A stretch of 64,000 bases of DNA. It comes from an uncultured Planctomycetota bacterium. GTDB lineage: Bacteria > Planctomycetota > JAJSAM01 > JAKLKS01. The stretch lies in assembly GCA_964370855.1 (NCBI GenBank), contig CAYJMF010000004.1, positions 25,258 to 89,257 of the forward strand, given 5' to 3'. Positions 30,085-51,884 of the stretch are shown here, piece after piece (within the stretch, counting starts at the first letter, position 1; every line of letters starts with the position of its first letter). The notes under the pieces are model-generated. The model did no database searches. It was given only the letters and a program-made list of their open reading frames with translations, and had not been told where the DNA came from. A program made the translations under genes and the position numbers.

Positions 30085-31605
30085 TTGCGCCGCAATGGCG
30101 GATCGGATCCCAGGATGGAGGCGGCCCGCGGGCCGGTGGCTTCGCCCCGGTGGCACGAGGACCCCGCCGCCGCGGCGGACTTCGCCCTCCTGCACCGGCC
30201 GAGCTTCAGCGTCCGCAAGAAGATCGCGCTGAGCTTCCTCCTGTGTTTCCTGGTGATCGGGGGCGTCACCCTGGCGTCCTCCCTCATCCTGAGCCGCATC
30301 GAGGAGCGGCTGCACTTCATCGAGCTCGCGGACAACTACACCAGCCACATCCAGCAGGCGCGGCGCTACGAGAAGAACTTCCTGCTCTACGGAACGGACC
30401 TGTCCAACGCGAGGGACAACCTCCGCGCGGCCAGGGAGACCCTGCTGGGCGCGCAGCCCGAGATCGACCGGGTGGTCGGTTCCCGGACCCATCGCGAGAT
30501 GATGGGGCACCTGGATCGCTACGATCAGCTCCTCTCCCGCCTGGCAAGCGCGGAGGACAAGCAGGGGATCGAGCCCGAATTGCGGAAGCACGGCGGGGAG
30601 ATGGTGGAGGTGGCCCTGCGCGTGGCCGAGGCCGAGAGGAGAACGGTCCACGACCTGCTCCGGATCTGCAAGCTGATGCCCCTCGTGGCCATGGCGCTCC
30701 TCCTCGCCCTCATCGCCTACGTGGTCCACTTCCTGGCCCGGCAGATCCTCACGCCGCTCGGCCGGATCGTGGGGTACGCGCGGCGCATCGCGGAGGGCGA
30801 CTTCGCTCCCGTCTTCCCCACGCGGCGCTACCGGGACGAGTTCACGGACCTCGTCCTCGCCATGAACCGCATGACGAGGGAGCTCGACCGGCGGCAGGAG
30901 ATGCTCGCCTCGGCGCAGAAGCTCCGGGCCATCGGGACCCTGACCGCCGGGGTCGCCCACGAGCTCAACAACCCCATCAACAACATCTCGCTCACGGCCG
31001 AGGCGCTGCTCGAGGACGTCGGGACGCTCTCGGTCCAGGAGAGGACCGAGATGTGCCGCGACCTCCTCTCGCAGGCGGAACGCGCCCAGGGCGTCGTGCG
31101 CAACCTGCTGGATTTCTCCCGCCAGCGGGAGCCCCGCATGGTGTCGGTCGATGTCGGCCCGCTCCTCACCCGGACGTGCAAGCTGCTCTCCAACCAGGTC
31201 AGGCTGTCGCGGGCGAGGATCGAACTCGGGATCCCCGACGGCCTTCCCCCGGTCCTCGGCGACGAGCAGCAGCTCGCGCAGGTGTTCGTGAACCTCTGCC
31301 TGAACGCCCTCGAGGCCATGGACCGGCCGGGGCGGCTGGGGGTCACCGCCGAACGGGCGGCAGGGCGCCCCGGGTTCCTGCGGATCGGGGTGAGCGACAC
31401 GGGGCGGGGGATCGCCCCCGAGGTCCTCCCCTTCATCTTCGACCCGTTCTTCACGACGAAGGGGGCGGGTGGGACGGGGCTCGGGCTCTCGGTCAGCTAC
31501 GGAATCGTCGAGAAGCACGGGGGGACCATCGAGGCGGCCAGCAGGGTCGGCGAGGGGACCCGCTTCTCCGTCTACCTGCCGTTCGCCGCCGCGGCGGCTC
31601 CCTAG
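30085..31605 (+). CDS. sensor histidine kinase (TM-HAMP-HisKA-HATPase)
   Basis: H-box AGVAHELNNP. G-box FDPFFTTKGAGGTGLGL. One TM segment near the N-terminus. Confidence 0.8.
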   Translation: MRRNGGSDPRMEAARGPVASPRWHEDPAAAADFALLHRPSFSVRKKIALSFLLCFLVIGGVTLASSLILSRIEERLHFIELADNYTSHIQQARRYEKNFLLYGTDLSNARDNLRAARETLLGAQPEIDRVVGSRTHREMMGHLDRYDQLLSRLASAEDKQGIEPELRKHGGEMVEVALRVAEAERRTVHDLLRICKLMPLVAMALLLALIAYVVHFLARQILTPLGRIVGYARRIAEGDFAPVFPTRRYRDEFTDLVLAMNRMTRELDRRQEMLASAQKLRAIGTLTAGVAHELNNPINNISLTAEALLEDVGTLSVQERTEMCRDLLSQAERAQGVVRNLLDFSRQREPRMVSVDVGPLLTRTCKLLSNQVRLSRARIELGIPDGLPPVLGDEQQLAQVFVNLCLNALEAMDRPGRLGVTAERAAGRPGFLRIGVSDTGRGIAPEVLPFIFDPFFTTKGAGGTGLGLSVSYGIVEKHGGTIEAASRVGEGTRFSVYLPFAAAAAP

Positions 31606-34118: not shown

Positions 34119-34137
34119 CGGGTGCCGGACGCGGAGG

Positions 34138-34536
34138 TCACCGGGCCGGCGGGGCCCCCGCCCGCTTCTCGAGGTCGGCCGCGGCCCGGAGGATCGTCTT
34201 CCGCAGGTCCTCGAGCATGAACGGCTTCGCCAGGAAGTCGAACGCCCCCAGGGTGAGGGCCTCCCGCGCGAGTTCCACGCTGGCGAATCCCGTGATCATG
34301 ATGACCCGGGTACGGGGGGACCGGTCGAGCACGTGTCGAAGGACGTCGAGCCCGTCGGTCCCCTCCATGCGCATGTCGGTCACCACGATGTCGTAGTCGT
34401 GCCCGTCGATCAGGCGGATGGCCTCGGCCCCCGTCTCCGCGGTGTCGACCTCGTACCCGGACTTCGCCAGCGCGGGTTTCAGGCGCTTTCCGACGATCGG
34501 CTCGTCGTCCAGGACAAGGATGCTGAGTCTCGCCAT
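34138..34536 (-). CDS. single-domain response regulator (CheY-like receiver, no output domain)
   Basis: MARLSILVLDDEP..VVTDMRMEG..DFLAKP. 132 aa. Confidence 0.8.
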   Translation of the reverse strand: MARLSILVLDDEPIVGKRLKPALAKSGYEVDTAETGAEAIRLIDGHDYDIVVTDMRMEGTDGLDVLRHVLDRSPRTRVIMITGFASVELAREALTLGAFDFLAKPFMLEDLRKTILRAAADLEKRAGAPPAR

Positions 34537-37146: not shown

Positions 37147-37899
37147 CTAGTGGCCGCCTCCCTTCTTGAAGACCATCCCGATGAGGAGCCCGACGGTGAG
37201 GGCGATCCCGACCGACATCGCGCCGTACAGGGTGCTCCGGTGGAACGCCATGTGCGAGATGAACCGGGGGAATCCCACGAGTTCGACCCGGAGCCGCGCG
37301 GCCTCCTTTCCCACGACCCTTCCCCCGGCCACCTGGATGACGTCGACCGCGTAGTCCCCCGGGGGGGCGACGTCGGGCCATGGAATCGCGGCCTCGAAGG
37401 CCGGGTGGTCGCCCTGCTCGAGGCGGACGGCCCCTTCGAAGGCCCCGAAGGCGCCCTGCGAACGCTTGAGGGCGAGGTACTCGCGCCGGATGAGGGCCGG
37501 GTCGGGACCCGCGGGTGCGAAGGTCGCGGCGTTCAGGACGGCCTCGACGTCGAGGAGGTTCTCCGCGATCTCCCCCGGGGGCAGGAGTCCCGCCGCGGGC
37601 CGGCTGCAGGCGGCGAGCCACAGGCTCGGGGCCCCGGAGACCGACAGGGAGCCGACGTTGGCCCAGAAGGGACCCACGCGCCCCTTCCGCTGGTACTTCT
37701 CCTCGACCGCGGCTCCCGTGATCGTGACGAAGACGTGGGCCCCGGGCACGGCGTCGCCCCGCACGCGGATCATGGCGCCCTTGAAGGTCGCGTCGATGCG
37801 GACGGGGTCGGGCTCCACGGCGAGGTCCGCGAACGCGGTGCCCGCTCCCATGGCCCCGGCGAGGAGCGCGAGGGGGATCGCGGCCTTCATGGTGCGCAT
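37147..37899 (-). CDS. secreted protein with N-terminal signal peptide and C-terminal membrane anchor; accessory to the adjacent TauE/SafE gene
   Basis: 250 aa. Signal-like N-terminus MRTMKAAIPLALLAGAMGAG. C-terminal TM ends ..KKGGGH. Start overlaps the TauE stop. Confidence 0.5.
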   Translation of the reverse strand: MRTMKAAIPLALLAGAMGAGTAFADLAVEPDPVRIDATFKGAMIRVRGDAVPGAHVFVTITGAAVEEKYQRKGRVGPFWANVGSLSVSGAPSLWLAACSRPAAGLLPPGEIAENLLDVEAVLNAATFAPAGPDPALIRREYLALKRSQGAFGAFEGAVRLEQGDHPAFEAAIPWPDVAPPGDYAVDVIQVAGGRVVGKEAARLRVELVGFPRFISHMAFHRSTLYGAMSVGIALTVGLLIGMVFKKGGGH

Positions 37900-38816
37900 C
37901 AATGTCCTCCGGCGGGGGAGAGCAGCAGGGGAGGGGCCGCCACCATGGCGTAGACCATCCTCGCGCAGACGGCGAGCACGATGCAGGCGAGGATGATCCG
38001 GAGCTGCTCGCCGCGCAGGCGTCGCGCGACGCGGGCTCCGAACTGCGCACCGACCGCGGACCCGACGGCGAGGACGATCGCCAGGGTGAAGTCGACGGTG
38101 TGGTTCACGGATGCCTGCATGAAGGTCACCCAGCTGGAGGTGAAGAGGATCTGGAACAGATCCGTTCCGACGGCGACGTGCATCGGCATGCGGAGCATGT
38201 AGACCATCGCCGGGATCATGATGAACCCGCCCCCGACGCCCATGATGGCCGCGAGCACCCCCACGAGGGCGCAGAGGGCGATGGGGACGAACACCGACTG
38301 GCGGATGCCGGACTTGGGGAAGCTCGCCTGCAGCGGGAGGCGCTCGAGCAGCGTGGCGAGCCGCGAGGGCCCCCGCCCCCCTGCGGCTTCCTTCCGGGAC
38401 CCGCGGAGCGTCCCGAGGCTCTCGAGGAACATGTAGCCGCCGATGAGGCCGAGGACGACGACGTAGGTCGCCATGATGAGGAAGTCCGCGTTTCCCATCC
38501 GGCGCAGCACCCGGATGATCTGCACGCCGACGGCTCCGCCCGCGACCCCGCCGAGCAGCATCAGGCATCCCAGCTTGTAGTCGACGTTCCCCATCCGCGC
38601 ATGCGCGAAGGTGCCCGACGCGGAGGCGGCGACGATCTGGCAGGAATCCGTCGCGGCGGCCACCGTCGGGGGTATCCCGACCGTCATGAGGAGGGGCGTC
38701 ATCAGGAACCCTCCTCCGACCCCGAACATGCCCGAGAGGAAGCCGACCAGCACGCCGAGGCCGAGGGGGAGGAGGAGGTAGATGCATTTTCCGGCGATGG
38801 GAAGGAAGATGTACAT
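37899..38816 (-). CDS. TauE/SafE (TSUP, DUF81) family permease, paralogue 1
   Basis: Duplicated GVGGGF(L/I)M motif, the DUF81 signature. ~305 aa, 8 TM. Confidence 0.8.
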   Translation of the reverse strand: MYIFLPIAGKCIYLLLPLGLGVLVGFLSGMFGVGGGFLMTPLLMTVGIPPTVAAATDSCQIVAASASGTFAHARMGNVDYKLGCLMLLGGVAGGAVGVQIIRVLRRMGNADFLIMATYVVVLGLIGGYMFLESLGTLRGSRKEAAGGRGPSRLATLLERLPLQASFPKSGIRQSVFVPIALCALVGVLAAIMGVGGGFIMIPAMVYMLRMPMHVAVGTDLFQILFTSSWVTFMQASVNHTVDFTLAIVLAVGSAVGAQFGARVARRLRGEQLRIILACIVLAVCARMVYAMVAAPPLLLSPAGGH

Positions 38817-39244: not shown

Positions 39245-40156
39245 ATGGACCGGTGGTACGTGCACTTTCCCGTGTCGGGGGTGGACGTCTGCCTCCTCCT
39301 TCCCCCGCTGGCGGCGTTCGCGATCTCCGCGGTGACGTCCATGGGAGGGGTGTCCGGCGCGGTCCTCCTCCTGCCCTTCCAGGTCAGCATCCTGGGGTTC
39401 ACGAGCCCCTCGGCCAGCGCCACCAACTTCGTCTACAACATCGTGGCCATCCCGGGAGGCCTCTGGTGCTACGCGAGGGAGCGGCGGATGGCGTGGCCGC
39501 TGGCGTGGATCATCGCCGCCGGCACGCTGCCGGGGGTGCTGATCGGCTTCCACGTCCGGGTCCGCTGCCTGCCCGACCCCCGTGCCTTCAAGCTGTTCGC
39601 GGGGTGCGCGCTCCTCTGCTTCGGGATGTGGCTGCTCCTCCGGAACGGCGGGAAGGCGGAGTCCGCCCGCGACGGCGGGCTCCCGGCGGGACTTCCTCCC
39701 GATGCCGTTGTGCGCACGGCCTCCTTCTCGCTCCGCCGCGCGGAGATCGAGTTCCGGGGTGAGCGGTTCCCGTTCAGCGTCCCGGGGGTGTTCGCCCTGG
39801 CGCTCGCGGTCGGTGTCTTCGGCGGGATCTACGGCGTCGGGGGCGGTGCGATCATCGCGCCCGTCTGCGTCGCCGCCTTCGGCCTCCCGATCCACGCGGT
39901 GGCGGGGGCGGCGCTGGCGGGAACGTTCCTCACCTCCGTCGCCGGGGTCGTCGTCTACGGCGCGATGCCCGTCGAACCCGGCATCGCGGTCCGCCCCGAC
40001 TGGCTCCTCGGCCTCCTGTTCGGCGCCGGCGGGCTCGCGGGGACGTACGCCGGGGCGCGGCTCCAGCGGTACGCCTCCCCCCGGTTCCTCCGGGCGATGC
40101 TGGGGCTGATCCTCCTCGGGACGGCCCTGCAGTACATCCACGGGTTCCTCCGTTGA
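39245..40156 (+). CDS. TauE/SafE (TSUP, DUF81) family permease, paralogue 2
   Basis: GIYGVGGGAIIAP motif. Polytopic. 303 aa. Confidence 0.75.
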   Translation: MDRWYVHFPVSGVDVCLLLPPLAAFAISAVTSMGGVSGAVLLLPFQVSILGFTSPSASATNFVYNIVAIPGGLWCYARERRMAWPLAWIIAAGTLPGVLIGFHVRVRCLPDPRAFKLFAGCALLCFGMWLLLRNGGKAESARDGGLPAGLPPDAVVRTASFSLRRAEIEFRGERFPFSVPGVFALALAVGVFGGIYGVGGGAIIAPVCVAAFGLPIHAVAGAALAGTFLTSVAGVVVYGAMPVEPGIAVRPDWLLGLLFGAGGLAGTYAGARLQRYASPRFLRAMLGLILLGTALQYIHGFLR

Positions 40157-40186
40157 ATCTCGCCGGAAGGGCCGTCGACCGGTATC

Positions 40187-40249: not shown

Positions 40250-40750
40250 GTGGTCCGGCCTCCAGCGGGTGCGGCATCCCATGCTCTTGCCGGTGTCGAG
40301 CCTTCGGTCCTCGACGGGATCGTGACGGACCCCGCCGTGCCCCCGGCCGCGCGCGTCCGCGTCCTTGTCATCGACGACGAGGCGGACTTCGCGACGGCGA
40401 CCGCCGAACGGCTGGTCCGCCGGGGCTTCCACGCGGTCCCCGTCTTCGACGGCCGCGCCGGCCTGGATCGGATCGCGGCCGGCCCCTTCGACGCGGTCCT
40501 GCTCGATCTCCGGATGCCGGGGATGGACGGTCTGGCGGTCCTCCGGGAGATCCGTCGCGTCGATCCCCACCTCCAGGTCGTGGTGCTGACCGGGCACGGA
40601 ACGGTGGCTTCCGGGATCGAGGGGATGCAGATCGGCGCCGCGGACTTCCTCCGGAAGCCCGCGGACTTCGATGGTCTGGTGACGGCGGTGCAGGCGGCCG
40701 CGGAGTCCACCCGCGCCCGCAGGGAGGCCGCCCGGGGAGGTGCCCGATGA
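40250..40750 (+). CDS. single-domain response regulator (CheY-like receiver)
   Basis: RVLVIDDEADF..LLDLRMPGMDG..DFLRKP. GTG start at 40250. True start uncertain. Confidence 0.75.
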   Translation: MVRPPAGAASHALAGVEPSVLDGIVTDPAVPPAARVRVLVIDDEADFATATAERLVRRGFHAVPVFDGRAGLDRIAAGPFDAVLLDLRMPGMDGLAVLREIRRVDPHLQVVVLTGHGTVASGIEGMQIGAADFLRKPADFDGLVTAVQAAAESTRARREAARGGAR

Positions 40751-41082
40751 GGAGGATCCCGTTCAGCGCCGTCCGCCGGAGGGCGCGCCGCTTCGCCCTT
40801 CCGCTCGCGGCGGCGGCGCTGGCGCTGGCGACGTGGTGCGCGGACGCCGCGGCCGCGGGGGGAGGAAAGCCCGCGTCGAAGCTCGTCAACGTCGCGGACA
40901 CGCGGTCCCTCGAGGCGGGCTTCTCGAGGTTCGTGGCGGACGTCTACAACGAGAGCTACTGGCTCTTCGCCCTCCTCGTGGTGGTCCTGATGGCGGGGCT
41001 CGGCCTCTTCCTGGGAATCGTGGCCGATCGCCTCTTCGCCCTCCTGGGGATCAACCTGGGGAGGATGTCGCACCACGAGTGA
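40747..41082 (+). CDS. small membrane protein (signal/TM), accessory to the TauE/SafE gene
   Basis: 112 aa. ATG overlaps the RR stop. Hydrophobic helix LFALLVVVLMAGLGLFLGIV. Confidence 0.45.
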   Translation: MRRIPFSAVRRRARRFALPLAAAALALATWCADAAAAGGGKPASKLVNVADTRSLEAGFSRFVADVYNESYWLFALLVVVLMAGLGLFLGIVADRLFALLGINLGRMSHHE

Positions 41083-41100: not shown

Positions 41101-42147
41101 ATGGGATTCTTCGACATCTACCTGCCCATCGCGGGGCTGGAGTTCAACGTCCTCCTCCTCCTGCTCATCGGGTTCACGGTGGGGGTGTGCGGGGGGTTCT
41201 TCGGGATCGGCGGGGCCTGGATCGTCACCCCGGCGCTCAACATCTTCGGGTTCCCGATGCCCTACGCCATCGGGACCGACCTCGCCCACATGGGGGGCAA
41301 GTCCATCGTGTCCACGATGCGCCACGGGAAGTTCGGGAACGTGGACACCCGGCTGGGCGTGTCGATGATCCTGGGCACCACCCTGGGGATGGAGCTGGGG
41401 GCGAACCTCGTGCTGTACCTCGAGAGCATCGGCCTGGCGGAGACGCTGATCCGCAAGGCCTACATCGTGTTCCTGACCCTCATCGGCGGCTACGTGCTCT
41501 ACGACTACCTCACCCACACGATGCGCGCGCGACGGGCCGCGGCCGGGGGGCAACCGGTGCGGGAGGAGAACACCATCGCGCAGCGGCTCCAGAGGATCCG
41601 GATCCCGCCCATGGTCCATTTCAGGGCCTCCGGGGTCACCTGCTCGCTCTGGATCCCCGTCCTCGTCGGCCTGATGACCGGCGTCGTGGCGTCGGTCCTG
41701 GGGGTGGGAGGCGGGTTCATCCGCATGCCCGCGCTCGTCTACCTGATCGGGTGCCCCACGGTGGTGGCCGTGGGCACGGACCTCTTCGAGGTGATGATCA
41801 CCGGGGCCTACGGCGCGTTCACCTACGGACTCAAGGGCCGCGTGGACCTCGTCGCCGCGATGTGGATGCTGCTGGGCGCGGCCGTCGGGGCCCAGATGGG
41901 CACGGTCGCCGTGAAGTACGTGCGCGGCTACTCGATACGGCTGCTGTTCGCCATCACCATCTTCATCGCGTGCGCGTCGGTCCTGCTGAAGCAGCTCGAG
42001 ATGAACCTCCCCTCGGCGATCCTCATCCTCACCGCGGGCATCGTCATCAGCGGGGTGATCCTGGTGCTCCTCGTGAAGGGGATCGCGGCGGAACGGGCCG
42101 CCGCGAGGGGGACCGGCCGGGCCGGCGGGACGGGAGGCACGCCATGA
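41101..42147 (+). CDS. TauE/SafE (TSUP, DUF81) family permease, paralogue 3
   Basis: GIGGAWIVTP and GVGGGFIRMP motifs. 348 aa. Confidence 0.8.
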   Translation: MGFFDIYLPIAGLEFNVLLLLLIGFTVGVCGGFFGIGGAWIVTPALNIFGFPMPYAIGTDLAHMGGKSIVSTMRHGKFGNVDTRLGVSMILGTTLGMELGANLVLYLESIGLAETLIRKAYIVFLTLIGGYVLYDYLTHTMRARRAAAGGQPVREENTIAQRLQRIRIPPMVHFRASGVTCSLWIPVLVGLMTGVVASVLGVGGGFIRMPALVYLIGCPTVVAVGTDLFEVMITGAYGAFTYGLKGRVDLVAAMWMLLGAAVGAQMGTVAVKYVRGYSIRLLFAITIFIACASVLLKQLEMNLPSAILILTAGIVISGVILVLLVKGIAAERAAARGTGRAGGTGGTP

Positions 42148-42452
42148 GGAGGAAGGGGTGGACCCTCGCCGCGGCGGCGGTCGCGGCGCTCCTGCCGGGC
42201 TGCTGGCGGGGGCCCGCGGTCGTCCAGGGCACGGTCGTGAGCTTCGATCGGGAATCGAAGGTGGTGGTGGTCCTGGACGAGAGGGGCGGGGCCCGGTCCG
42301 CCTTCGACGTCTCGGGCGCGGAGATCGGGGCGGAGCCGGCCGAGGGGGACAGGGTGCGGCTGGCCTACAGGGAGGAGGAGGGGAAGCGGGTCGCCTCCCG
42401 GCTCATGAACCTCACCCGGCAGGCGGAGATCGGCAAGGGCTCCGGGCACTAG
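42144..42452 (+). CDS. small putative lipoprotein (LLPGC lipobox) coupled to the TauE/SafE gene
   Basis: 102 aa. ATG overlaps the TauE stop. Ends ..GKGSGH. Confidence 0.4.
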   Translation: MRRKGWTLAAAAVAALLPGCWRGPAVVQGTVVSFDRESKVVVVLDERGGARSAFDVSGAEIGAEPAEGDRVRLAYREEEGKRVASRLMNLTRQAEIGKGSGH

Positions 42453-42475: not shown

Positions 42476-42880
42476 ATGGGCGGAGAGCCGGGCCGGGATC
42501 CCATCCGCGTCCTCCTCGTCGACGACGAGGAGACGTACCGCGAGACGCTGGCCAAGGTCCTCCGCCGCCGCGGCATGGACGTGACGACGGCCGGAAGCGG
42601 ATCCGACGCCGTCGAGCGGCTCCCCGGGGCCGTCCCCGAGGTCGTCGTCCTGGATCTCCGCATGCCGGGGCTCGACGGCCTGGACACGCTGAGGGAGATC
42701 CGGCGGCGGGAGCCCGCGGCGCGCGTCATCATCCTGACGGGCCACGGGACCCCGGAGGCGGGCCTCGCGGCGATCCGCGGGGAGGCCTGCGACTTCCTGC
42801 TCAAGCCCGTGGTCGTCGATCGCCTCGTGGAGGTCATCGAATCGGCGGCGGCCGAGGCCCGCCGATCGGGCGGCCGCTGA
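42476..42880 (+). CDS. single-domain response regulator (CheY-like receiver)
   Basis: RVLLVDDEE..VLDLRMPGLDG..DFLLKP. Confidence 0.8.
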   Translation: MGGEPGRDPIRVLLVDDEETYRETLAKVLRRRGMDVTTAGSGSDAVERLPGAVPEVVVLDLRMPGLDGLDTLREIRRREPAARVIILTGHGTPEAGLAAIRGEACDFLLKPVVVDRLVEVIESAAAEARRSGGR

Positions 42881-42884
42881 GGCC

Positions 42885-44549
42885 ATGGACCACCGGGACT
42901 ACGGCGCGCTGTTCCGGGGCACCGTCGGGAGGATGGTCCTCGTCTCGGTCGCCCCCATCCTCGCCGTGGGGGCGGTCGGCTTCCTCCAGTTCTCCCGGTA
43001 CAACCGCGCCATCGCCCTGGACCAGCACGCCGCCATCGTGCGCCAGCACCGCGAGTCCGTCGGGGCCTTCCTCGACGGACTGACCGCCCAGCTCACGACG
43101 CTCGCGCACCAGTACTCGCTCTCCGAACTCGCCGGGGGGGAGCTGGAGCGCGCGTTCCGCGTCATCCGGAGGAAGGAGGGGGTCTTCACGGACATCGGCG
43201 TCATCGACTCCCGGGGAGCCCACGTGAGGTACGTGGGGCCCTACGATCTCTCCTCCAGGAACTACCGGGAGACGGAGTGGTTCCGGCTGGTCGTGGAGAA
43301 GGGAGTGCACGTCAGCGACATGTTCCTGGGGTACCGGGGAGTGCCCCACTTCGTGATCGCGGTGCGGCGCGACGAGGGCCCGGACTTCTGGATACTCCGC
43401 GCGACGGTGGACACCGACTACTTCAGCCGGATGGTGGACGCCACCCGGGCGGGAAGGACCGGCGAGACGTTCATCGTCAACCCCGAGGGGCTGCTCCAGA
43501 CCGCGACCCTCCACGGGGGGAGGGTCCTGACCCCCTCCGGGCTCCCGGACATCGGGCCCCACGAGGGTGTCCGCGTCCGGGAAGTCGATTTCGACGGGCG
43601 GACCTTCACGTGCACCTCCACGTGGCTCGCCCGGCCGCGCTGGCTCCTGGTCTTCCGCCAGGAGAACACCGACCTGTACGCCCCTCTCCGGAGGGCCACG
43701 GCGTGGGGACTGGCGGCCGTGCTGGCCGGGGCCGCGGGGGGGGTGGGGCTGGCGGTCGTCGTGGCGCGGCGGCAGGTCGGGATGATCCGGAAGGCCGACG
43801 GGGAGAAGGAGGCGCTCGTGGGGAGGCTCCTCGTGGCGGGGAGGACCGCCGCCGTGGGCGAACTGTCCGCCGGGGTGGCCCACGGGATCAACAACCCGCT
43901 GGCGACCATCGACGTCCTGCGCACGTGGATCGCCGACATCGCCGGAGGAGGGCAGCCCGCCGGGTCGGACCGCGCCGAGATCCTGGAGTCGGCGGCCAGG
44001 ATCGGCGAGCAGGTGGCCCGCTGCAAGGCGATCACCGGGGGGCTGCTCTCCTTCTCGCGGCGCGTGGAGGCGAAGGCGGAGGCCGTCGATGTCGTCCCGC
44101 TCCTCCGGGAGCTGGCCGCCATGGCCTCGGCCAGGGCCGGGGTGGAGGGCGTCGCCCTCGTGCTGGAGCTGCAGCCGGCGCCTCCCGTCTTCGCCTCCTC
44201 CTCGCACCTCCAGCAGGTGTTCATGAACCTCGTGAACAACGCCATCGACGCCGCGGCCGGACGGCCCGGCGGGCGGGTCTCCCTCCGATCGGGGTCCGAG
44301 GCCGGAAGAGTGAGGATCGACGTCGTCGACAACGGGTGCGGGATCACCGGGGAGAACATGGCGAGGATCTTCGTGCCCTTCTTCACGACCAAGGCCGTGG
44401 GCAAGGGGACCGGGCTCGGGCTCGCCATCGCCCACGGCCTGGTCCGGAGCCTGGGGGGCGAGATCCGGGTGGAGAGCGAGGCGGGGGAGGGGGCGACCTT
44501 CACCGTGCTCCTCCCGCCGGCGGCGGGGTCCGCCGGCAGCCGCGCCTAG
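42885..44549 (+). CDS. sensor histidine kinase with extracytoplasmic Cache-like sensor domain
   Basis: Two TM segments flank a ~250-aa periplasmic region. H-box AGVAHGINNP. HATPase G-box. Paralogue of 47699..49345. Confidence 0.85.
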   Translation: MDHRDYGALFRGTVGRMVLVSVAPILAVGAVGFLQFSRYNRAIALDQHAAIVRQHRESVGAFLDGLTAQLTTLAHQYSLSELAGGELERAFRVIRRKEGVFTDIGVIDSRGAHVRYVGPYDLSSRNYRETEWFRLVVEKGVHVSDMFLGYRGVPHFVIAVRRDEGPDFWILRATVDTDYFSRMVDATRAGRTGETFIVNPEGLLQTATLHGGRVLTPSGLPDIGPHEGVRVREVDFDGRTFTCTSTWLARPRWLLVFRQENTDLYAPLRRATAWGLAAVLAGAAGGVGLAVVVARRQVGMIRKADGEKEALVGRLLVAGRTAAVGELSAGVAHGINNPLATIDVLRTWIADIAGGGQPAGSDRAEILESAARIGEQVARCKAITGGLLSFSRRVEAKAEAVDVVPLLRELAAMASARAGVEGVALVLELQPAPPVFASSSHLQQVFMNLVNNAIDAAAGRPGGRVSLRSGSEAGRVRIDVVDNGCGITGENMARIFVPFFTTKAVGKGTGLGLAIAHGLVRSLGGEIRVESEAGEGATFTVLLPPAAGSAGSRA

Positions 44550-44714
44550 AAGCGGTTTCACAGGCCCCCGCGGCCCCGCCGGGGGCGGCGGGGGGCCGTC
44601 TGCAGCGTCGGCCCTCCTCGCCTACCCTCCTGGGTATGTCTTCGTCGGGCCTCCTTGCATCCTGCCCCCCGGCGCCCCCGTCGCGACCACGGGGGCTTGT
44701 GAAACCGCTTCTAG
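44546..44714. repeat. 17-bp perfect inverted repeat (agaagcggtttcaca / tgtgaaaccgcttct) flanking a 132-bp GC-rich spacer between convergent genes
   Basis: ctagaagcggtttcacag at 44546-44563 and cttgtgaaaccgcttctag at 44696-44714. The inner GC hairpins may act as a bidirectional terminator. Confidence 0.5.
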
Positions 44715-47287: not shown

Positions 47288-47677
47288 CTACCGGGAGGAG
47301 GGCCGGGAGCGCCGGTTCGCGGCCGCTCGGCGGATGGTGCCGAGCAGCTCGTCCACCTGCACCGGCTTCAGGAGGTACTCGAAGGCGCCGAGTTCCATCC
47401 CCCGGACCCCCAGCTCCACGGAGGCGTGCCCGGTGAGGAGGATCACCTCGGTCTCCGGGAATCCGTTCCTCATGCGCCGCAGGAGGTCCAGGCCGTCCAT
47501 CCCCGGCATCTTCACGTCGACCACGGCGCAGTCGAAGTCGGTCCCGGAGAGCGCGGCGAGCGCCTCCACCCCGGACCGGGCCGTGGTGCAGTCCAACCCC
47601 CGCCTGCCCAGCAGGGTCGCCGTGGGCTCGAGGAACTCGACCTCGTCGTCCACCAGGAGCAGCTTCAGGTCCGCCAC
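47288..47677 (-). CDS. single-domain response regulator (CheY-like receiver)
   Basis: MADLKLLLVDDE..VVDVKMPGMDG..EYLLKP. 129 aa. Confidence 0.8.
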   Translation of the reverse strand: MADLKLLLVDDEVEFLEPTATLLGRRGLDCTTARSGVEALAALSGTDFDCAVVDVKMPGMDGLDLLRRMRNGFPETEVILLTGHASVELGVRGMELGAFEYLLKPVQVDELLGTIRRAAANRRSRPSSR

Positions 47678-47698
47678 TTCCCGCCTCCTCCCGCCCGG

Positions 47699-49345
47699 TC
47701 AGGCGTTCTCGGGCTCCAGGGGGAACCAGAGCGTGAACGTCGTCCCCCTGCCCGGCGCGCTCTCGACGCCGATGCGGCCGCCGAGGCCGTGCATGATCTC
47801 GCGGCACAGGGCCAGGCCGAGCCCGGAGTGGATTCCCGGCCCCGACTTGGTCGAGTAGAACGGTTCGAACACCCTCTGCAGATCCCCGGCGGGGATGCCG
47901 GGACCGTCGTCCGCCACCACCACCTCGACCCCGCCTCCCGCCGCCCGCACGGCGAGCCCGAGTTGGCCGTCCCGTCCCATGGCGTCCACGGCGTTGTTGA
48001 TCAGGTTCAGGAAGACCTGCTGCATCCGGGAGAGGCTCGACCGGAGGATCGGGACCCCGGGCCCGTAGTCCCGGACGATGCGGATGTCCGACGCCTGGAT
48101 CTCCCTCTCCACGAACCCGACCGTCTCCTCGAGGGCGGCGGCGACGTCCACGGGCTCGAGGTCCGGCCCCACCCGGCGGGAGAAGCCGAGGAGGCGGTGG
48201 GTCACCTTGCGGCCCCTCTCGACCTGGGCCTCGATCTTCCCCAGCCGGTCCCGGAACTCCCCGGCCCGCGGGAAGTCCGTGCCGTCGGCCAGGGCGTCCG
48301 CCAGCACGCCCACCTGGGCCTGGATGATGGCCAGGGGGTTGTTGATCTCGTGGGCCACGCCGGCGGCCAGCCGCCCGATGGCCGCCATCTTCTGGGACTG
48401 CGCCACCGACTCGTAGAGCGCAGCGCGCTCCGCCTGGAGGCCCCGGAGCTGCCGGAGGCGGTACCTCGCGACGAGGGCCGCGGACAGCGGGACCAGGCCG
48501 AGGCAGGCCAGGAGCCCCCAGAGGAGCGCGGGGTGGACGTCGGCGATGGAGTCCCCGGGCAGCGCCTGCCTGGCCACGAGCACCCATCGCTCCCCCCGGA
48601 GCCACGCGTTGGCGACGAGCTGGTCGTCCTGCCGGAGCATCCTCACGCCGGTGTGCACGGGGATCGGGCCGAGGTCCGCCTTCTCCATGAGGCGATGCGC
48701 GGGGGAGTAGCGGGTCTGGTACTCGCCGGCCCTGTTCAGGATGAACACGTCCGCCCCGGACTCGAGGCCGCCCTCGCGGACAAGGTCCGAGAGCCGGTCG
48801 GTGTCGATCGTAGCCCTCAGGATGAAGGCCCGGTCGCCGCTCCGCTTCGTCACCGCCATGACCATGTGCGGGAAGCGGCGGAACCCCAGGAACACGTCGC
48901 TCTCGTACCGTCCGCGAACCATTGCCTGGTGGAACCAGTCCTCGCCGCTGTAGTCCTGGTCCTCGAGGCTGTAGGGTCCCGCGTAGGCGATGTGGCGGCC
49001 GTCCCCCCCTATCAGGCCGAGATCGATGATGGCCCCCTGCCCCTGCCGCATCTGGTCGAGCAGGAACTGGATCACCACCGGGTTCGAGAGCTCCGCGACC
49101 GGCAGGGACGCGGCCACGAGGTCCAGGTCCCGCAGCTTCTCCTCGAGGAACAGCTCGATCGTCGCCCTGCGGTTCTTGACCATGGCCTCGAGGACGTTCC
49201 TCGCCCTGGCCTCCAGACCGGCCTGGTTGGCGGCGATCCCGGCGAGCCCCATGGCGGCGGTGGGCAGAAGTCCGAAGAGGAGGAGCACCCGGAACATCGA
49301 GCCCAGCAGCTTCCGGTAGGTGGTGGGCGCGGACTCAGCCTTCAT
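47699..49345 (-). CDS. sensor histidine kinase with extracytoplasmic Cache-like sensor domain
   Basis: H-box AGVAHEINNP. HATPase domain. Periplasmic domain homologous to the 42885..44549 kinase. Confidence 0.85.
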   Translation of the reverse strand: MKAESAPTTYRKLLGSMFRVLLLFGLLPTAAMGLAGIAANQAGLEARARNVLEAMVKNRRATIELFLEEKLRDLDLVAASLPVAELSNPVVIQFLLDQMRQGQGAIIDLGLIGGDGRHIAYAGPYSLEDQDYSGEDWFHQAMVRGRYESDVFLGFRRFPHMVMAVTKRSGDRAFILRATIDTDRLSDLVREGGLESGADVFILNRAGEYQTRYSPAHRLMEKADLGPIPVHTGVRMLRQDDQLVANAWLRGERWVLVARQALPGDSIADVHPALLWGLLACLGLVPLSAALVARYRLRQLRGLQAERAALYESVAQSQKMAAIGRLAAGVAHEINNPLAIIQAQVGVLADALADGTDFPRAGEFRDRLGKIEAQVERGRKVTHRLLGFSRRVGPDLEPVDVAAALEETVGFVEREIQASDIRIVRDYGPGVPILRSSLSRMQQVFLNLINNAVDAMGRDGQLGLAVRAAGGGVEVVVADDGPGIPAGDLQRVFEPFYSTKSGPGIHSGLGLALCREIMHGLGGRIGVESAPGRGTTFTLWFPLEPENA

Positions 49346-51884
49346 GGTCCCTCCGGAACGCGTAGTCCCCCGCGTTGAAGGCGTCCTCGTACTCCTTCAC
49401 CGTCGCGTCGGAGGTCAGCGACATGTCGAGGTGGTTCACGTACCCCATGACCAGGCCGACCGTGGCCAGGGCCTCCTCCATCGCCTCCGGGGGGAGGTGG
49501 CGCACCCTGGCGTTGACGAGGTCCGCGGCCTGGTCGCACTCGAACCCGCGCGCGGAGAGGAGGCGCCTGATGAGGACCGCACGGCGGCTCCTCTGCTCCA
49601 CCCCCGTGGCCCCCCCGACGAAGCGGAAGGAGGCGTGGTTGGACTCCACCCTGTCGCAGACGCGCGCGTCGACGGTCGAGAAGTGGTACCCGATCCGCGA
49701 GTTCAGGCTCATGGAGTCGGAGGAGATGAAGGCGTAGGAGGGTTCGCCCATGGGCCGCAGGCGCTGGTCCTGGTCGAAGTTGTAGTTGACGACGGCGGAC
49801 ATGAACCCCCGGAGGGACACGGGCCGGAGGGTCCGCCACCGCAGGCGCGGGTCGGTCATGCCGCGCCAGAGCGCCCTCATCGGCGCGCAGGCGACCTGGT
49901 CCATCGTGACGTCGCCTCCCGGCGCGCCCGGGGCGAGTCCGCCGCCGAGATCGAACACCCGGCAGTCGATGGGCACGGACGAGACGAGGCGGCGCGCAGG
50001 CGTTCCCCCGTTGACGGCCCCGTCCCCGAGTTCGAACATCTCCTCGACCGTCGCCTGGTGGCAGAAGCGGATGATGTCGTGGATCGTGCGGCACTCGCCG
50101 GGGGAGTAGCCGCTGGCCTGGCGATCGCGCAGGGTCAGGGGGACGATCAGGTCCTTGACGGAGGCCAGGCGCTCGACGTTGGGGTTGCGCGGCCCCGCCG
50201 GGCGCTCCGCGGCCCCCGCGAGGACCGCCTCGACGCGTCCCCGGTAGACGACACCGGCGTCGGCGTCCACGGTCACGACCTCGCCGTCCGGCGGAAGGAC
50301 CGCGGTGGCGGTCCGGGTCGCCAGCAGGGCGGGGACGCGGAGTTCGCGGGCCACGGTGGCCAGGTGGCCGGTCACCTCCCCCATGTCGGCGACGAGGGCC
50401 GCCGCCCCGGGAAGGAGGACCGCGAACCGGGGGTCCGCTTCCGCGACGGCGATCACGGACCCGGGAGCGCAGCCGAGGACGTCCGCGTCGGACCCGACGC
50501 GCCTCAGGGGGCCGGACCCCGCGCCCCTGCTCGCCCGGGAGCCGCCCTCGAGCAGGACGGCCGCCCCCGGGACCCGCGCGCCGGTGGGGCGGTCGGCCTG
50601 CTCCGCGTGCCGGGGCTGGGGCCGCACCTGGAGCACGTGGACGCGTCCGTCGCCGTCGACGGCCCACTCCATGTCCAGGGGCATCCCGAACCGGTCCTCG
50701 AGGCGCCACGCGGCGTCGGCGATCTCCAGGGCGAGTCCCGGGGAGAGGATCGCGCGGCCGGACAGGGACGCGTCGAGGTCCACCCGCTCCACCCCTCCGG
50801 CGGCCGCGCTCCGGAGGATCCCCGCCTGCACCCCCGTGCGGTACGAGGCGACCTCCCGGCGCTCGCGGTCCACGTAGCAGGAGTCCGGCTCCGCCGACCC
50901 GTCCACGGCGGAGAGCCCGAGGCCCCGGACCGCCTGGATCAGGGTCCGCTGGCCGAGGGAGGTCGCGCAGGCGCCGTAGAGCACCCCGGCCGCCCGCGCC
51001 TCCACCATCCGGACCACGCAGCAGCACATGGCGACCTCGTCGTCCTCGAAGCCCCGCCCCAGGCGGTAGGCGATGGCCTGCGGCGAGTACTTGCCCGCGA
51101 CCACCTGCCGGAACGCCTCCTCCAGGGCCGCGGGGGGGACGTTCAGGAGGGATCGGTACTGGCCGGCGAAGGACACCTCCATCCCGCCCTCCTGGAGGGC
51201 GCTCGAGCGCACCGCGAGCCGGTCCCCGGGGGAGAAGGAGGCCGCGCCGGCACGGAGCGCGGCGGCGACGGCGGCGGGCAGGGGAGACGCGAGGATGGCG
51301 CCGGTGATCCCGGCGGAGGCCCTGAAGCAGGACGCGACGTCGCCCGGATCCGCGCCCTCCATCCCGGCCGCGATCCGATCCCCCAGGCCCCCCTCCTCCA
51401 TGAGGGCGCGGTAGGCGGCGACCGTGGTGGCGAACCCGTCGGGGACCCGTCCGCCGAGGACCCTGCGCGCCTCCCCGAGGAAGGCGCTCTTCTGCCCGAC
51501 GACCTCGGACAGCGATGCGTCCACGTCGGCGAGGCCTAGGACCATCCCGACCTCCCGCAGCGAGGGCGTGATCTCGACCCCGCGGGCGATCCCGCTCTTG
51601 AGGCTCTCGAAGAGCGGGACGAGATCGCCGTACCTGTCCTCCGTCATCCGGTTCAGGTGGACCACCATCCGGTAGGTCTGGACCATGACTCCGGCCACGA
51701 GGCGGCGGAGTTCCGCCGCGGAGAGCCTCCCGGAATCCAGGGCCTCCTGGATGCGCTCCACGTGTCCCAGGGCGGAGTTGTTCGCGTGCAGGACTTCACG
51801 GAATGCGGCCATGCGGGACTCGAGGGGCGGTCCCTCGCCGTGCCCCCGACCCAGGAGTCTGGAGACGATGCCGCCGCGGGACAT
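49335..51884 (-). CDS. PpsA-like PEP-utilising dikinase paralogue 4
   Basis: Motifs GQKSAFLGE, AVRSSALQEGG.EVSFAGQY, LDMEWA, GEVTGHLATVARELRVPALL. Its 3' end overlaps the downstream HK start by 11 nt. Confidence 0.8.
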   Translation of the reverse strand: MSRGGIVSRLLGRGHGEGPPLESRMAAFREVLHANNSALGHVERIQEALDSGRLSAAELRRLVAGVMVQTYRMVVHLNRMTEDRYGDLVPLFESLKSGIARGVEITPSLREVGMVLGLADVDASLSEVVGQKSAFLGEARRVLGGRVPDGFATTVAAYRALMEEGGLGDRIAAGMEGADPGDVASCFRASAGITGAILASPLPAAVAAALRAGAASFSPGDRLAVRSSALQEGGMEVSFAGQYRSLLNVPPAALEEAFRQVVAGKYSPQAIAYRLGRGFEDDEVAMCCCVVRMVEARAAGVLYGACATSLGQRTLIQAVRGLGLSAVDGSAEPDSCYVDRERREVASYRTGVQAGILRSAAAGGVERVDLDASLSGRAILSPGLALEIADAAWRLEDRFGMPLDMEWAVDGDGRVHVLQVRPQPRHAEQADRPTGARVPGAAVLLEGGSRASRGAGSGPLRRVGSDADVLGCAPGSVIAVAEADPRFAVLLPGAAALVADMGEVTGHLATVARELRVPALLATRTATAVLPPDGEVVTVDADAGVVYRGRVEAVLAGAAERPAGPRNPNVERLASVKDLIVPLTLRDRQASGYSPGECRTIHDIIRFCHQATVEEMFELGDGAVNGGTPARRLVSSVPIDCRVFDLGGGLAPGAPGGDVTMDQVACAPMRALWRGMTDPRLRWRTLRPVSLRGFMSAVVNYNFDQDQRLRPMGEPSYAFISSDSMSLNSRIGYHFSTVDARVCDRVESNHASFRFVGGATGVEQRSRRAVLIRRLLSARGFECDQAADLVNARVRHLPPEAMEEALATVGLVMGYVNHLDMSLTSDATVKEYEDAFNAGDYAFRRDHEG

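Follow-up and report, generated by a model that had tools for sequence, protein, structure and literature searches.

In Desulfovibrio, transposon mutants of the TauE permease gene DVU0251, of DVU0247, which encodes a response regulator (RR) of 120 aa, and of the adjacent DVU0246, which encodes a protein with PPDK_N and PEP-utilizers domains, are all nitrate-resistant, as is a rex mutant, and the authors suggested a role in thiosulfate uptake (PMC4001038). One phenotype for the RR, enzyme and TauE mutants fits a single pathway with a non-DNA-binding RR. Another cluster, D. vulgaris DVU0145-DVU0150, is induced in syntrophy (PMC4265775, PMC4641369), and its DVU0150-0146 operon is dependent on sigma54 and DVU0151 (PMC4641369). 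In addition, four genes of conserved synteny and unknown function, '1-4', occur in the dissimilatory sulfur clusters of the acidobacterial MAGs SbA1-7 (Hausmann et al. 2018, PMC6018796, Fig. 2).

Here we analysed 64,000 nucleotides from an uncultured Planctomycetota bacterium, and refer to this whole stretch as the window. It shares with the Desulfovibrio nitrate cluster (DVU0251-DVU0245 / Dde_0597-0605; Korte et al. 2014) a TauE permease, a sensor kinase (HK), a receiver-only RR (~120 aa in Desulfovibrio) and the combination of PPDK_N and PEP-utilizers mobile domains without PEP-utilizers_C; Rex, which has a phenotype in the Desulfovibrio work, is encoded in the window, where Rex-like operators also occur. 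By contrast, the PtxB-like binding protein and the dual-specificity phosphatase of the Desulfovibrio cluster were not found in the window, which encodes five enzymes as against a single one, 744 aa long and seemingly lacking the N-domain, and two Cytidylate_kin2 proteins, whose gene is not listed for the Desulfovibrio cluster.

Layout and setting of the gene cluster

Genes were called from the GC3 frame plot and domains were assigned with Pfam (Table 1). A gene set of ~28 kb encloses the operons described in an earlier note on this DNA and sits in a gene island with apr, qmo, sat, dsrAB, dsrL/N-like, dsrM2K2-like and rex genes; judging from this content, the window is an apr-qmo-sat-dsr island, predicted to serve dissimilatory sulfate reduction. 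We suggest that the region of ~29.2-56.9 kb may be one functional supercluster of dissimilatory sulfur metabolism, kept in several dsr-bearing phyla, as part of an overall explanation to which we give about an even chance.

Table 1. Features of the supercluster (positions in the window)
Feature	Position	Strand	Basis or remark
Cytidylate_kin2 + BON protein	29184..29999	-	Pfam PF13189 1.1e-38, BON
HAMP-HisKA-HATPase HK, two TM helices	30085..31605	+	Pfam, TM scan
PEP-like#1, 838 aa	31602..34118	-	N-domain, PPDK_N ATP-grasp, swivel-His domain (H503), novel C-domain
RR_a stand-alone receiver, 132 aa	34138..34536	-	Pfam Response_reg 5.6e-30
PEP-like#2, 830 aa	34553..37045	-	Pfam, alignment of paralogues
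Alph_Pro_TM single-pass accessory protein	37147..37902	-	Pfam PF09608 6.1e-42, TM scan
TauE/TSUP permease 1	37899..38816	-	Pfam PF01925 9.7e-53
TauE/TSUP permease 2	39245..40156	+	Pfam PF01925 1.4e-37
Rex-operator-like palindrome CCGTGATTTTTCTCACAA	40186..40203	no strand	upstream of RR-DVU0150-TauE operon
RR_b stand-alone receiver, 142-166 aa by start codon (40250 or 40322)	40250..40750	+	Pfam
DVU0150-family small membrane protein	40747..41082	+	NCBIfam NF040783, TM scan
TauE/TSUP permease 3	41101..42147	+	Pfam 3.1e-43
Small putative lipoprotein	42144..42452	+	LLPGC lipobox-like motif
RR_c stand-alone receiver, 134 aa	42476..42880	+	Pfam
dCache-HisKA-HATPase kinase 1	42885..44549	+	Pfam; periplasmic sensor between two TM helices
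PEP-like#3, 853 aa	44711..47272	-	Pfam
RR_d stand-alone receiver, 129 aa	47288..47677	-	Pfam
dCache-HisKA-HATPase kinase 2	47699..49345	-	Pfam, TM scan
PEP-like#4, 849 aa	49335..51884	-	Pfam; 11-nt overlap with HK start
Rex-operator-like palindrome TCGTGATTTTCTGCACAA	52043..52060	no strand	divergent promoter region
Cytidylate_kin2 protein, BON-like C-terminal part	52309..53142	+	Pfam
small53, 62-aa single-pass protein	53168..53356	+	TM scan
TauE/TSUP permease 4	53356..54273	+	Pfam 4.6e-41
PEP-like#5, 869 aa	54308..56917	+	Pfam; beyond coordinates of the earlier note

The frame plot and Pfam reproduced the gene orders and strands of the earlier note, namely, on the minus strand, PEP#2-RR-PEP#1 and PEP#4-dCache HK-RR-PEP#3 and, on the plus strand, RR-DVU0150-like-TauE-lipoprotein-RR-dCache HK. 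Its 11-nt overlap (PEP#4/HK) was also found, whereas the intergenic gaps, which it had put at 10-20 nt, measure 4-23 nt and are joined by several overlaps of 1-4 nt. The minus-strand gaps are 16, 19, 21 and 15 nt; along the plus-strand operon the junctions are a 4-nt overlap, an 18-nt gap, a 4-nt overlap, a 23-nt gap and a 4-nt gap, and the HAMP HK (+) and PEP#1 (-) are convergent, overlapping by 4 nt. While the operons themselves stood, the extent of the system had been drawn too small, overlooking the fifth paralogue, the HAMP HK, two further TauE genes, the Alph_Pro_TM gene, both Cytidylate_kin2(-BON) genes and the sulfate-reduction setting. Our list of overlooked TauE genes reads 37899-38816, 39245-40156 and 53356-54273. 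The first Cytidylate_kin2-BON reading frame is open to 30335, its likely start being the Met of 'MAIITISRG'. The most likely start of RR_a is ATG at 34536, for a product of 132 aa; a start at 34563 was ruled out, the codon there being CCC.

The Rex-like operators at 40186 and 52043 lie in the promoter regions of two operons, and locus L085 (L numbers denote compared loci) has an equivalent of the latter at the same position with one mismatch; no enrichment of the Rex motif was found across the other loci (22 matches vs ~21 expected). Of 51 loci at least 15 kb long, 23 carry genes of the sat/apr/qmo/dsr type within 10 kb; within the same distance, sat occurs in 20/80 loci and qmo in 11/80.

The enzyme family and its partners

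The sequences indicate that the PEP-like proteins are uncharacterised PEP-synthase-like phospho-histidine enzymes with a distinct architecture, in which an extra N-domain of ~115 aa, an ATP-grasp and a swivel-His domain are followed by a C-domain of ~290 aa. The five paralogues share ~34% identity over their full length, N- and C-domains included, and match PpsA models only at positions ~10-465 of 798. The identity of the family as PEP synthase or PPDK was rejected because the PEP/pyruvate domain is missing; the proteins, called dikinase paralogues in the earlier note, are thus not PpsA/PPDK in function. Public annotation labels the family 'pyruvate, water dikinase'. The catalytic swivel His is kept in 112/117 family sequences, as are, in at least 112/117 (≥96%) each, Cys589, His593, Asp594, Arg597, His600, Asp637, His727, Asn742 and Arg761 of the C-domain, with Asp732 (106/117) and Arg758 (109/117) slightly less constant. 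In some phyla, the PEP#2 orthologue is a form without the His and the ATP-grasp.

The C-domain had no match in the Pfam scan, and two AlphaFold models of it (pLDDT 74 and 84) had no significant fold match in the PDB by Foldseek: the best E-value was 3.9e-3 and TM-scores were all below 0.5 under either normalisation, and at most 0.25 when normalised to the query. A weak likeness to peptide-binding, chaperone-like folds was seen (Foldseek probability 0.89, TM 0.24-0.38). A profile search with the C-domain matched 1542 clusters and gave 406 genomic matches; among the matches listed, it is at the C-terminal end in full-length proteins (~800-900 aa).

The core repeated in the window combines a TauE/TSUP anion permease and a PpsA-like enzyme with a Cytidylate_kin2-BON protein and a single-pass accessory protein, which is Alph_Pro_TM, DVU0150-like or the 62-aa protein. 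In the Cytidylate_kin2 proteins, the Lys of the P-loop is missing. The Alph_Pro_TM protein ends in ...KKGGGH, small53 in ...GKGGH and the putative lipoprotein in ...GKGSGH, the last residue being His in 25/34 homologues of the first and 10/10 of the second. Of 70 family genes, 79% have Cytidylate_kin2 within 5 kb, 76% TauE, 56% a stand-alone RR, 51% a second paralogue and 47% an HK. TauE and Cytidylate_kin2 are therefore more constant partners of the enzymes than the RR, which, being absent near 44% of family members, is an add-on rather than a universal partner.

Synteny extends over Acidobacteriota, Thermodesulfobacteriota, Myxococcota, Latescibacterota, Armatimonadota and Acidithiobacillales, and the arrangement is far beyond chance, its sub-operons recurring gene for gene in other phyla. 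RR-PEP1-HAMP HK is found in many loci, with PEP1 and HAMP HK convergent as in the window in Polyangiaceae locus L046; TauE-AlphTM-PEP2-RR is likewise conserved, and CytK2-small53-TauE-PEP5 recurs in 8 Acidobacteriota loci. L085 and L087 keep HK-RR-PEP3 within PEP4-dCacheHK-RR-PEP3, with CytK2-small-TauE-PEP5 divergent, and L085 also has the PEP4/HK overlap. In 22 independent loci, the enzyme gene starts -28 to +45 nt from the RR stop codon, and in 13 loci the enzyme gene is immediately followed by an HK gene.

Proposed control and its alternatives

As the earlier note had held, all four RRs are bare receivers (Pfam), and the equivalents of DD, D57, T87 and K109 are intact in the alignment. Fusion to output domains obscured by sequencing error, which it had considered, is contradicted by 72 homologous single-domain RRs from other genomes, which retain D12/D13/D57/K109; together with the four of the window, the acceptor Asp is kept in 76/76. 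By these residues, the RRs are true stand-alone receivers that can be phosphorylated, and no truncation artefacts. To call them 'orphan' was misleading: two adjoin their own HK and a third pairs with the HAMP HK by conserved synteny. The dCache_1 match is 33.7 bits in the first dCache HK, below the Pfam cut-off of 45, and 50.4 bits, above it, in the second.

We speculate that the PEP-like enzyme uses ATP to load a phosphoryl group onto its own swivel His, which might hand it at the C-domain to a non-pyruvate acceptor, a step that would control or accompany TauE traffic of a sulfur oxyanion, be it sulfate, thiosulfate or sulfite. The periplasm-sensing kinases (two dCache, one HAMP) would phosphorylate the stand-alone NtrC-type receivers from the enzyme operons, and the phosphorylated RR may then switch the enzyme, or enzyme pair, through protein contact, transcription probably being set separately in this organism by Rex. 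We regard this explanation as a whole, phospho-His enzymes and TauE traffic gated by HK and RR, as just as apt to be right as wrong. Post-translational control by the RR, the part of it that the earlier note had proposed for co-encoded enzymes or permeases, is plausible in view of the operon embedding in 22 loci and the common phenotype in Desulfovibrio, although the 44% of family members without a nearby RR speak against it. If correct, the module offers a testable lead on how sulfate reducers control sulfur-oxyanion traffic.

The receivers might instead be phosphorelay intermediates or phosphate sinks with a transcriptional final output, such as an NtrC-type sigma54 activator, their link to the enzymes being one of co-regulation only. 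Their NtrC-like LTGH motif and the sigma54/DVU0151 dependence of the D. vulgaris operon (PMC4641369) would agree with this, as would NtrC-type RR+HK pairs flanking the cluster in L002, L007, L010, L013, L014, L021, L024-26 and L085; such an activator with its own HK stands beside the cluster in several Thermodesulfobacteriota loci and L085, and transcriptional output therefore exists there. However, we consider it unlikely for the window, where neither an Hpt protein nor a sigma54 activator is among the annotated genes (a few small genes elsewhere lay outside the scan), no sigma54 promoter signal was found (7 matches vs 10 expected) and RR genes are tightly inserted between enzyme genes (gaps of 15-21 nt), an arrangement conserved in 22 loci. 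The RR could also be a substrate rather than a regulator, with the PEP-like protein acting as an ATP-grasp/swivel-His 'kinase' for the receiver Asp. Direct, probably translationally coupled adjacency, a C-domain with no known substrate and its weak resemblance to peptide-binding folds would suit a phosphodonor, which is nevertheless very improbable given canonical HisKA kinases within the operons, the many family members with no RR nearby and the lack of a known precedent for transfer from swivel His to receiver Asp.

It would be tempting to assign the PEP-like and Cytidylate_kin2 proteins to nucleotide/pyrophosphate salvage in sulfate respiration, where a PPDK-like reaction would recycle the AMP of APS reductase and the PPi of ATP sulfurylase, its phosphoryl partner being something other than PEP; TauE would merely import sulfate and the two-component system would tune flux. 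The nearby sat and qmo genes, the intact PPDK_N domain and an adenylate kinase gene adjoining the cluster in L087 point that way. Yet salvage would hardly call for five paralogues that each have a permease and an accessory protein of their own, and the missing P-loop lysine, the catalytically dead partner forms and the mimicry of permease loss by enzyme loss in Desulfovibrio (PMC4001038) make it quite improbable. Coincidental adjacency of ordinary PEP synthase or PPDK paralogues to unrelated signalling genes, which the public label might suggest, is almost certainly wrong: the enzymes lack the PEP/pyruvate-binding domain, and the partial matches to PpsA models together with synteny across six lineages already refute it.

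Comparison with known systems

The window enzymes resemble PpsA/PPDK in having the ATP-grasp ahead of the swivel phospho-His domain and in keeping the catalytic His and the ATP-site motifs, and differ in the added N-domain and in the ~290-aa domain that replaces the PEP/pyruvate TIM-barrel. Rifampicin phosphotransferase (RPH) and PpsA-like enzymes of the PigC/RedH type apply the chemistry of ATP-grasp and swivel His to an acceptor other than pyruvate, as proposed here, and NCBIfam models of the RPH/PigC type match the ATP-grasp part of the window enzymes (~200 bits vs a cut-off of 999). However, RPH carries its His domain at the C-terminal end, behind the substrate-binding domain, whereas that of the window enzymes is central, and Foldseek against the PDB gave no fold match of the C-domain to RPH structures. 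The RRs resemble stand-alone regulators of the CheY, DivK, CpdR and SdrG type, which act by protein contact, in being receiver-only, with an intact acceptor pocket, HisKA partners and no DNA-binding output; the target proposed here, a swivel-His dikinase-like enzyme, would to our knowledge be the first of its kind for such a receiver.

Read along the plus strand, the operon of RR, DVU0150-family protein, membrane protein, lipoprotein and RR parallels DVU0150, DVU0149, DVU0148 (lipoprotein) and DVU0145 (RR) of the syntrophy-induced D. vulgaris cluster, the likeness to DVU0150 resting on an NF040783 score of 69.4 bits, 0.6 bit under the cut-off of 70; the D. vulgaris operon depends on sigma54, for which the window gave no promoter signal. 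Finally, an SbA1 contig (L066) bears CytK2-DVU0150-TauE-PEP-like, which makes this arrangement a candidate counterpart of genes '1-4' (Hausmann et al. 2018).

Gene layout and recurrence of the module

Because the G+C content of the window is ~72%, raw ORF lists were crowded with spurious frames; GC3 frame analysis yielded a single consistent gene set, with domains assigned by Pfam. This set reproduces the gene order and strands that the earlier note had described for two minus-strand operons and one plus-strand operon of PEP-like genes (the PpsA-like "dikinase" paralogues), stand-alone receivers (RRs), histidine kinases (HKs) and permeases. The junctions are tight, with 15-21 nt on the minus strand, an 11-nt overlap between PEP-like#4 and its HK, and -4 to +23 nt on the plus strand. 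There is no start codon at 34563, and the likeliest start of the receiver between PEP-like#2 and PEP-like#1 is the ATG at 34536. The module also reaches beyond the region of that note on both flanks, and a fifth paralogue lies outside it. No Rfam families were found between 29 and 58 kb of the window, and a scan for sigma70 promoters and terminators was uninformative, as expected at 72% GC. Two genes near its start (149-3531), for a DUF5682 protein (857 bits) and then a VWA CoxE-like protein, have no relation to the module.

Features of the module and of the surrounding sulfur island (window coordinates)
Feature	Position	Strand	Basis or remark
Rex-like site	4492-4509		upstream of aprB-like gene
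Upstream island segment	4792-29164		AprB-like ORF (putative), AprA, Qmo-like (QmoB with FlpD domain), Sat, DsrK-like, NrfD/DsrP-like, DsrA, DsrB, DsrL-like, DsrN-like, siroheme genes (DsrV/DsrW-like)
Cytidylate_kin2-BON	29184-29999
HAMP HK	30085-31605		convergent with PEP-like#1
PEP-like#1	31602-34118	minus	GC3 frame, Pfam
Receiver-only RR	34138-34536	minus	GC3 frame, Pfam
PEP-like#2	34553-37045	minus	GC3 frame, Pfam
Alph_Pro_TM	37147-37902		upstream of PEP-like#2; single-pass, tail-bearing
TauE	37899-38816		upstream of PEP-like#2
TauE	39245-40156		additional permease gene
Rex-like site	40186-40203		upstream of RR-DVU0150-TauE operon
RR	40250/40322-40750	plus	alternative starts; GC3 frame, Pfam
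Small TM protein (DVU0150-like)	40747-41082	plus	single-pass, tail-bearing
TauE	41101-42147	plus	Pfam
Lipoprotein	42144-42452	plus	single-pass, tail-bearing
RR	42476-42880	plus	GC3 frame, Pfam
dCache HK	42885-44549	plus	GC3 frame, Pfam
PEP-like#3	44711-47272	minus	GC3 frame, Pfam
RR	47288-47677	minus	GC3 frame, Pfam
dCache HK	47699-49345	minus	GC3 frame, Pfam
PEP-like#4	49335-51884	minus	GC3 frame, Pfam
Rex-like site	52043-52060		PEP-like#4/Cytidylate_kin2 divergent region
Cytidylate_kin2	52309-53142	plus	first of the genes preceding PEP-like#5
62-aa membrane protein	53168-53356	plus	between Cytidylate_kin2 and TauE; single-pass, tail-bearing
TauE	53356-54273	plus	directly ahead of PEP-like#5
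PEP-like#5	54308-56917	plus	fifth paralogue
Downstream island segment	56898-61843		DsrK2 (DsrK/HdrD)-like, DsrM2-like, Rex, HemA
Rex-like gene	59418-60455
Further Rex-like sites	59525, 59577
Rex-like site	60463-60480		downstream of rex

Eighty public loci were retrieved with a profile of the C-domain (the ~290-aa C-terminal part of the PEP-like proteins), and their neighbours were annotated with the window's own proteins; as the loci were ranked by similarity to PEP-like#1, the sample is biased toward PEP-like#1-like genes. Among 70 family genes, the partners found within 5 kb were Cytidylate_kin2 (79%), TauE (76%), a stand-alone RR (56%), another paralogue (51%), an HK (47%) and Alph_Pro_TM (40%). 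In 22 loci, RR stop and enzyme start are separated by -28 to +45 nt, and in 13 the gene directly after the enzyme encodes an HK. The order Cytidylate_kin2, TauE, (partner PEP-like), stand-alone RR, PEP-like, HAMP HK is found in Latescibacterota, Deltaproteobacteria RBG_13_43_22 and Acidithiobacillales, the order TauE, Alph_Pro_TM, PEP-like, RR is likewise recurrent, and every sub-operon of the window has orthologous copies elsewhere. Two loci (L085 and L087) match gene for gene, with PEP-like#4, dCache HK, RR and PEP-like#3 beside a divergent Cytidylate_kin2, small-protein, TauE and PEP-like#5 set. The proposed coupling of receivers to enzymes thus stands as far as adjacency and recurrence of the sub-operons go; however, because 44% of family genes have no RR nearby, the receiver is an add-on rather than a core partner.

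PEP-like enzymes and their C-terminal domain

All five PEP-like proteins of the window carry a PPDK_N ATP-grasp domain (PF01326, E 1e-57 to 1e-63) and a swivel phospho-His domain (PF00391), and they are ~34% identical over their full length, including the N-domain (~115 aa) and the C-domain. The catalytic His, H503, is invariant among the five, and 112 of 117 family members retain it. The "dikinase" label of the earlier note does not fit the remainder of the protein, where the C-domain takes the place of the PEP/pyruvate barrel: the window proteins have no Pfam match to PEP-utilizers_C (the PEP/pyruvate TIM barrel), PpsA equivalog models align only over ~10-465 of 798 residues (230-264 bits against cut-offs of 598-740), and PDB sequence matches end at the swivel domain. 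An identity as ordinary PEP synthase or PPDK is rejected, since the PEP/pyruvate-binding barrel is missing. Rifampicin phosphotransferase (RPH) is rejected as well: RPH consists of ATP-grasp, substrate-binding domain and C-terminal His domain, whereas the His domain of the PEP-like proteins is central (~470-545 of ~840), and the RPH model NF041857 gave 150-197 bits, far under its cut-off of 999.

Neither Pfam nor NCBIfam has a match for the C-domain itself. Two AlphaFold models (pLDDT 74 from 13 sequences and 84 from 87 sequences) predict a mixed alpha/beta fold with mixed alpha/beta sheet topology, for which Foldseek found no significant match in the PDB (best E-value 3.9e-3; all TM-scores <0.5 whichever way they are normalised, and <=0.25 when the query is the reference). 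As modelled, the C-domain is thus neither a PEP/pyruvate barrel nor the RPH substrate domain. The profile returned 1542 clusters at 50% identity, and 406 matches in one-genome-per-species contigs, almost all of them MAGs; among the matches listed, the domain sits C-terminal in full-length (~800-900 aa) proteins. It occurs in Acidobacteriota, Thermodesulfobacteriota, Myxococcota, Latescibacterota, Zixibacteria, Armatimonadota, Binatia and Acidithiobacillales, and a tblastn search of plasmids with the C-domain gave no match. Cys589, His593, Asp594, Arg597, His600, Asp637, His727, Asn742 and Arg761 are each conserved in at least 112 of 117 members (at least 96%), with Asp732 (106/117) and Arg758 (109/117) slightly lower; such conservation resembles that of an active or ligand site and not of a passive tail.

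Five family members depart from His conservation, all of them "upstream partner" paralogues (in L001, at 7884-9467, and in L014, L020, L022 and L038) with D, E, P or G in place of the His. At least in the Latescibacterota partner (L001), the ATP-grasp is missing too, while the N-, swivel and C-domains remain; this protein is a genuine short form and, judged from these losses, is likely a pseudo-enzyme partner of the catalytic paralogue. Such genes indicate that catalytic/non-catalytic paralogue pairs exist. Two other apparent short forms (P0136, P0156) were rejected as truncated metagenome fragments, and no additional Pfam domain was found in three longer proteins (P0244, P0254, P0081).

Receivers, permeases and sulfur context

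The four RRs of the window, described earlier as bare receiver domains with no output, indeed match PF00072 only (129-166 aa), and equivalents of CheY D12, D13, D57, T87 and K109 are present in all four. Together with 72 homologous stand-alone receivers from other loci (119-149 aa), the D/D/D/K pocket is kept in 76/76 and the T in 73/76. As the acceptor Asp is kept throughout, the small size is not a sequencing artefact. An apparent PEP-like-receiver fusion in L011 (14175-17216) is not a Rosetta-stone protein: a run of N bases bridges two genes in the public MAG contig, giving a false single ORF. Both dCache HKs have TM helices on either side of the sensor, followed by HisKA and HATPase_c; dCache_1 scores 50.4 bits in the minus-strand kinase and 33.7 bits in the plus-strand kinase, above and below the cut-off of 45, respectively.

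The four TauE/TSUP genes score 130-180 bits against PF01925 (cut-off 32.6), each with multiple TM segments. The DVU0150-like protein scores 69.4 bits against NF040783 (E = 2.7e-19), just under the cut-off of 70, and homologues in L086 and L087 carry PF28216 (DVU0150). The TauE-associated single-pass proteins end in ...KKGGGH, ...GKGGH or ...GKGSGH, and the DVU0150-like protein in ...SHHE. Among homologues from L005-L084, the last residue is His in 25/34 Alph_Pro_TM, 9/13 DVU0150 and 10/10 62-aa proteins (44 of 57 over three families). Because a TM helix and basic residues precede it, the tail is predicted to be (probably) cytoplasmic. The two Cytidylate_kin2 proteins begin 'ITISRG(S/T)xSGGE', so that the P-loop Lys/Ser-Thr seen in true NMP kinases is missing; Pfam finds a BON domain in one, and the other has, by eye, a BON-like C-terminal part.

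The module is embedded in a full dissimilatory sulfur island, which takes up the remainder of the window on either side. Among the 80 loci, genes within 10 kb included sat (20), qmoBC-type (11), DsrN-like (11), DsrK/HdrD-like (10) and aprA (4), and at least one such gene was present in 23 of the 51 loci of at least 15 kb. For a several-Mb genome, such proximity (10 kb) is estimated to arise by chance in well under 1% of cases. In Latescibacterota L001 (1-2803), a molybdopterin oxidoreductase, a 4Fe-4S protein and NrfD (a Psr/Phs-like set) with FdhD lie just upstream of the module, which is another sulfur-type context. In the dsr clusters of acidobacteria, Hausmann et al. flagged a syntenic set of four genes with no known function (PMC6018796); an SbA1 contig (L066) has Cytidylate_kin2-DVU0150-TauE-PEP-like, a candidate match to those genes. 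We found no literature joining TauE, cytidylate kinase and dikinase, and two reviews and papers on dsr diversity make no mention of the module.

A scan for the Rex operator (TTGTGA-N6-TCACAA) gave 8 palindromes in the window against 3.1 expected. The four sites with 2 mismatches (starting at 4492, 40186, 52043 and 60463) are all intergenic, three of them in promoter positions and the fourth downstream of rex, and L085 has a 1-mismatch site at an equivalent position, the sole positional equivalent. Across the other loci there was no enrichment (22 matches against ~21 expected). The motif pattern suggests that transcription is under redox control, via Rex, in this organism.

A proposed mechanism and its relatives in Desulfovibrio

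Beyond the observed anatomy, residue conservation, synteny and sulfur context, the best-supported scheme as a whole runs from kinase through phosphorylated receiver and PEP-like enzyme to TauE traffic. Sensing of periplasmic signals would fall to the HAMP kinase and both dCache kinases, which would phosphorylate the stand-alone receivers; RR~P would then contact a PEP-like enzyme, or the flanking paralogue pair. Phosphoryl would pass from ATP to the swivel His and on to an acceptor at the C-domain, and this transfer step would govern TauE-linked sulfur-oxyanion traffic. Of this scheme, we infer the contact between receiver and enzyme as well as the acceptor and the cargo. The non-transcriptional control of enzymes by receivers proposed in the earlier note is partly supported, by the stand-alone receivers and their conserved linkage, although the RR is not a core partner. 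Coincidental adjacency is refuted by the absence of the PEP/pyruvate-binding domain and by the conserved synteny.

Several other explanations deserve consideration. In certain lineages NtrC-type activators border the cluster, and the circuit might be a transcriptional relay that runs through them. A scan for sigma54 promoters turned up 7 matches, fewer than the 10 expected. The PEP-like enzymes might alternatively serve in AMP/PPi salvage, or act as phosphodonor to the RR. The conserved terminal His invites a further hypothesis, improbable in our view: a secondary-type permease would be served by a PTS-like phosphorelay driven by ATP. ATP would load the swivel His, and the C-domain would pass the phosphoryl to the terminal His of the accessory partner of each TauE permease (Alph_Pro_TM, DVU0150 or the 62-aa protein), so as to gate or energise the import of the sulfate, thiosulfate or sulfite that is to undergo dissimilatory reduction. 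Enzyme activity would be set by receiver~P from the periplasmic Cache/HAMP kinases, with the His-less, ATP-grasp-less paralogues as regulatory partners.

The preferred scheme, from kinase to TauE traffic, would bear on a field in which little is settled about what transports sulfur oxyanions in sulfate and sulfite reducers and how this transport is controlled, with TauE/TSUP proteins as candidate sulfate, sulfite or thiosulfate carriers, none characterised there (PMC5840216). The module is made of known part types in an arrangement of undescribed mechanism, with an uncharacterised enzyme domain. It is a large cross-phylum module of apr-qmo-sat-dsr islands, with five enzyme paralogues here and no assigned biochemical function, and it joins output-less-receiver signalling, swivel-His dikinase chemistry with an uncharacterised acceptor domain, and TSUP permeases, previously unconnected mechanistically. 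With its recognition, thousands of proteins now labelled "pyruvate, water dikinase" would be re-annotated.

The closest known systems are found in Desulfovibrio. The plus-strand operon resembles the syntrophy-induced DVU0145-0150 cluster, with the near-threshold DVU0150 score reported here. The "nitrate cluster" of Korte et al. 2014 comprises TauE (DVU0251), a hypothetical protein, a PtxB-like protein, an HK, a 360-bp receiver gene (DVU0247), a 2235-bp PPDK_N plus PEP-utilizers gene (DVU0246) and a dual-specificity phosphatase (PMC4001038). A homologue search with PEP-like#3 reached no Desulfovibrio protein; DVU0246, a candidate member of the C-domain family, has a length (744 aa) that fits the PEP-like architecture minus the N-domain. 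By Pfam and Table 3 of that paper, the window and the nitrate cluster share TauE, an HK, a receiver-only RR and a PPDK_N plus PEP-utilizers protein without PEP-utilizers_C, whereas no Pfam family of the PtxB-like binding protein or the phosphatase was found among the window's genes at 29.2-56.9 kb. Transposon mutants in the permease, the RR and the enzyme resist nitrate, and so does a rex mutant, whereas the phosphatase mutant does not; a leaky thiosulfate importer was proposed (PMC4001038). These mutants are genetic evidence that permease, output-less RR and dikinase-like enzyme act in one pathway, and because this related cluster has a clean phenotype in a tractable Desulfovibrio, the hypothesis is directly testable.
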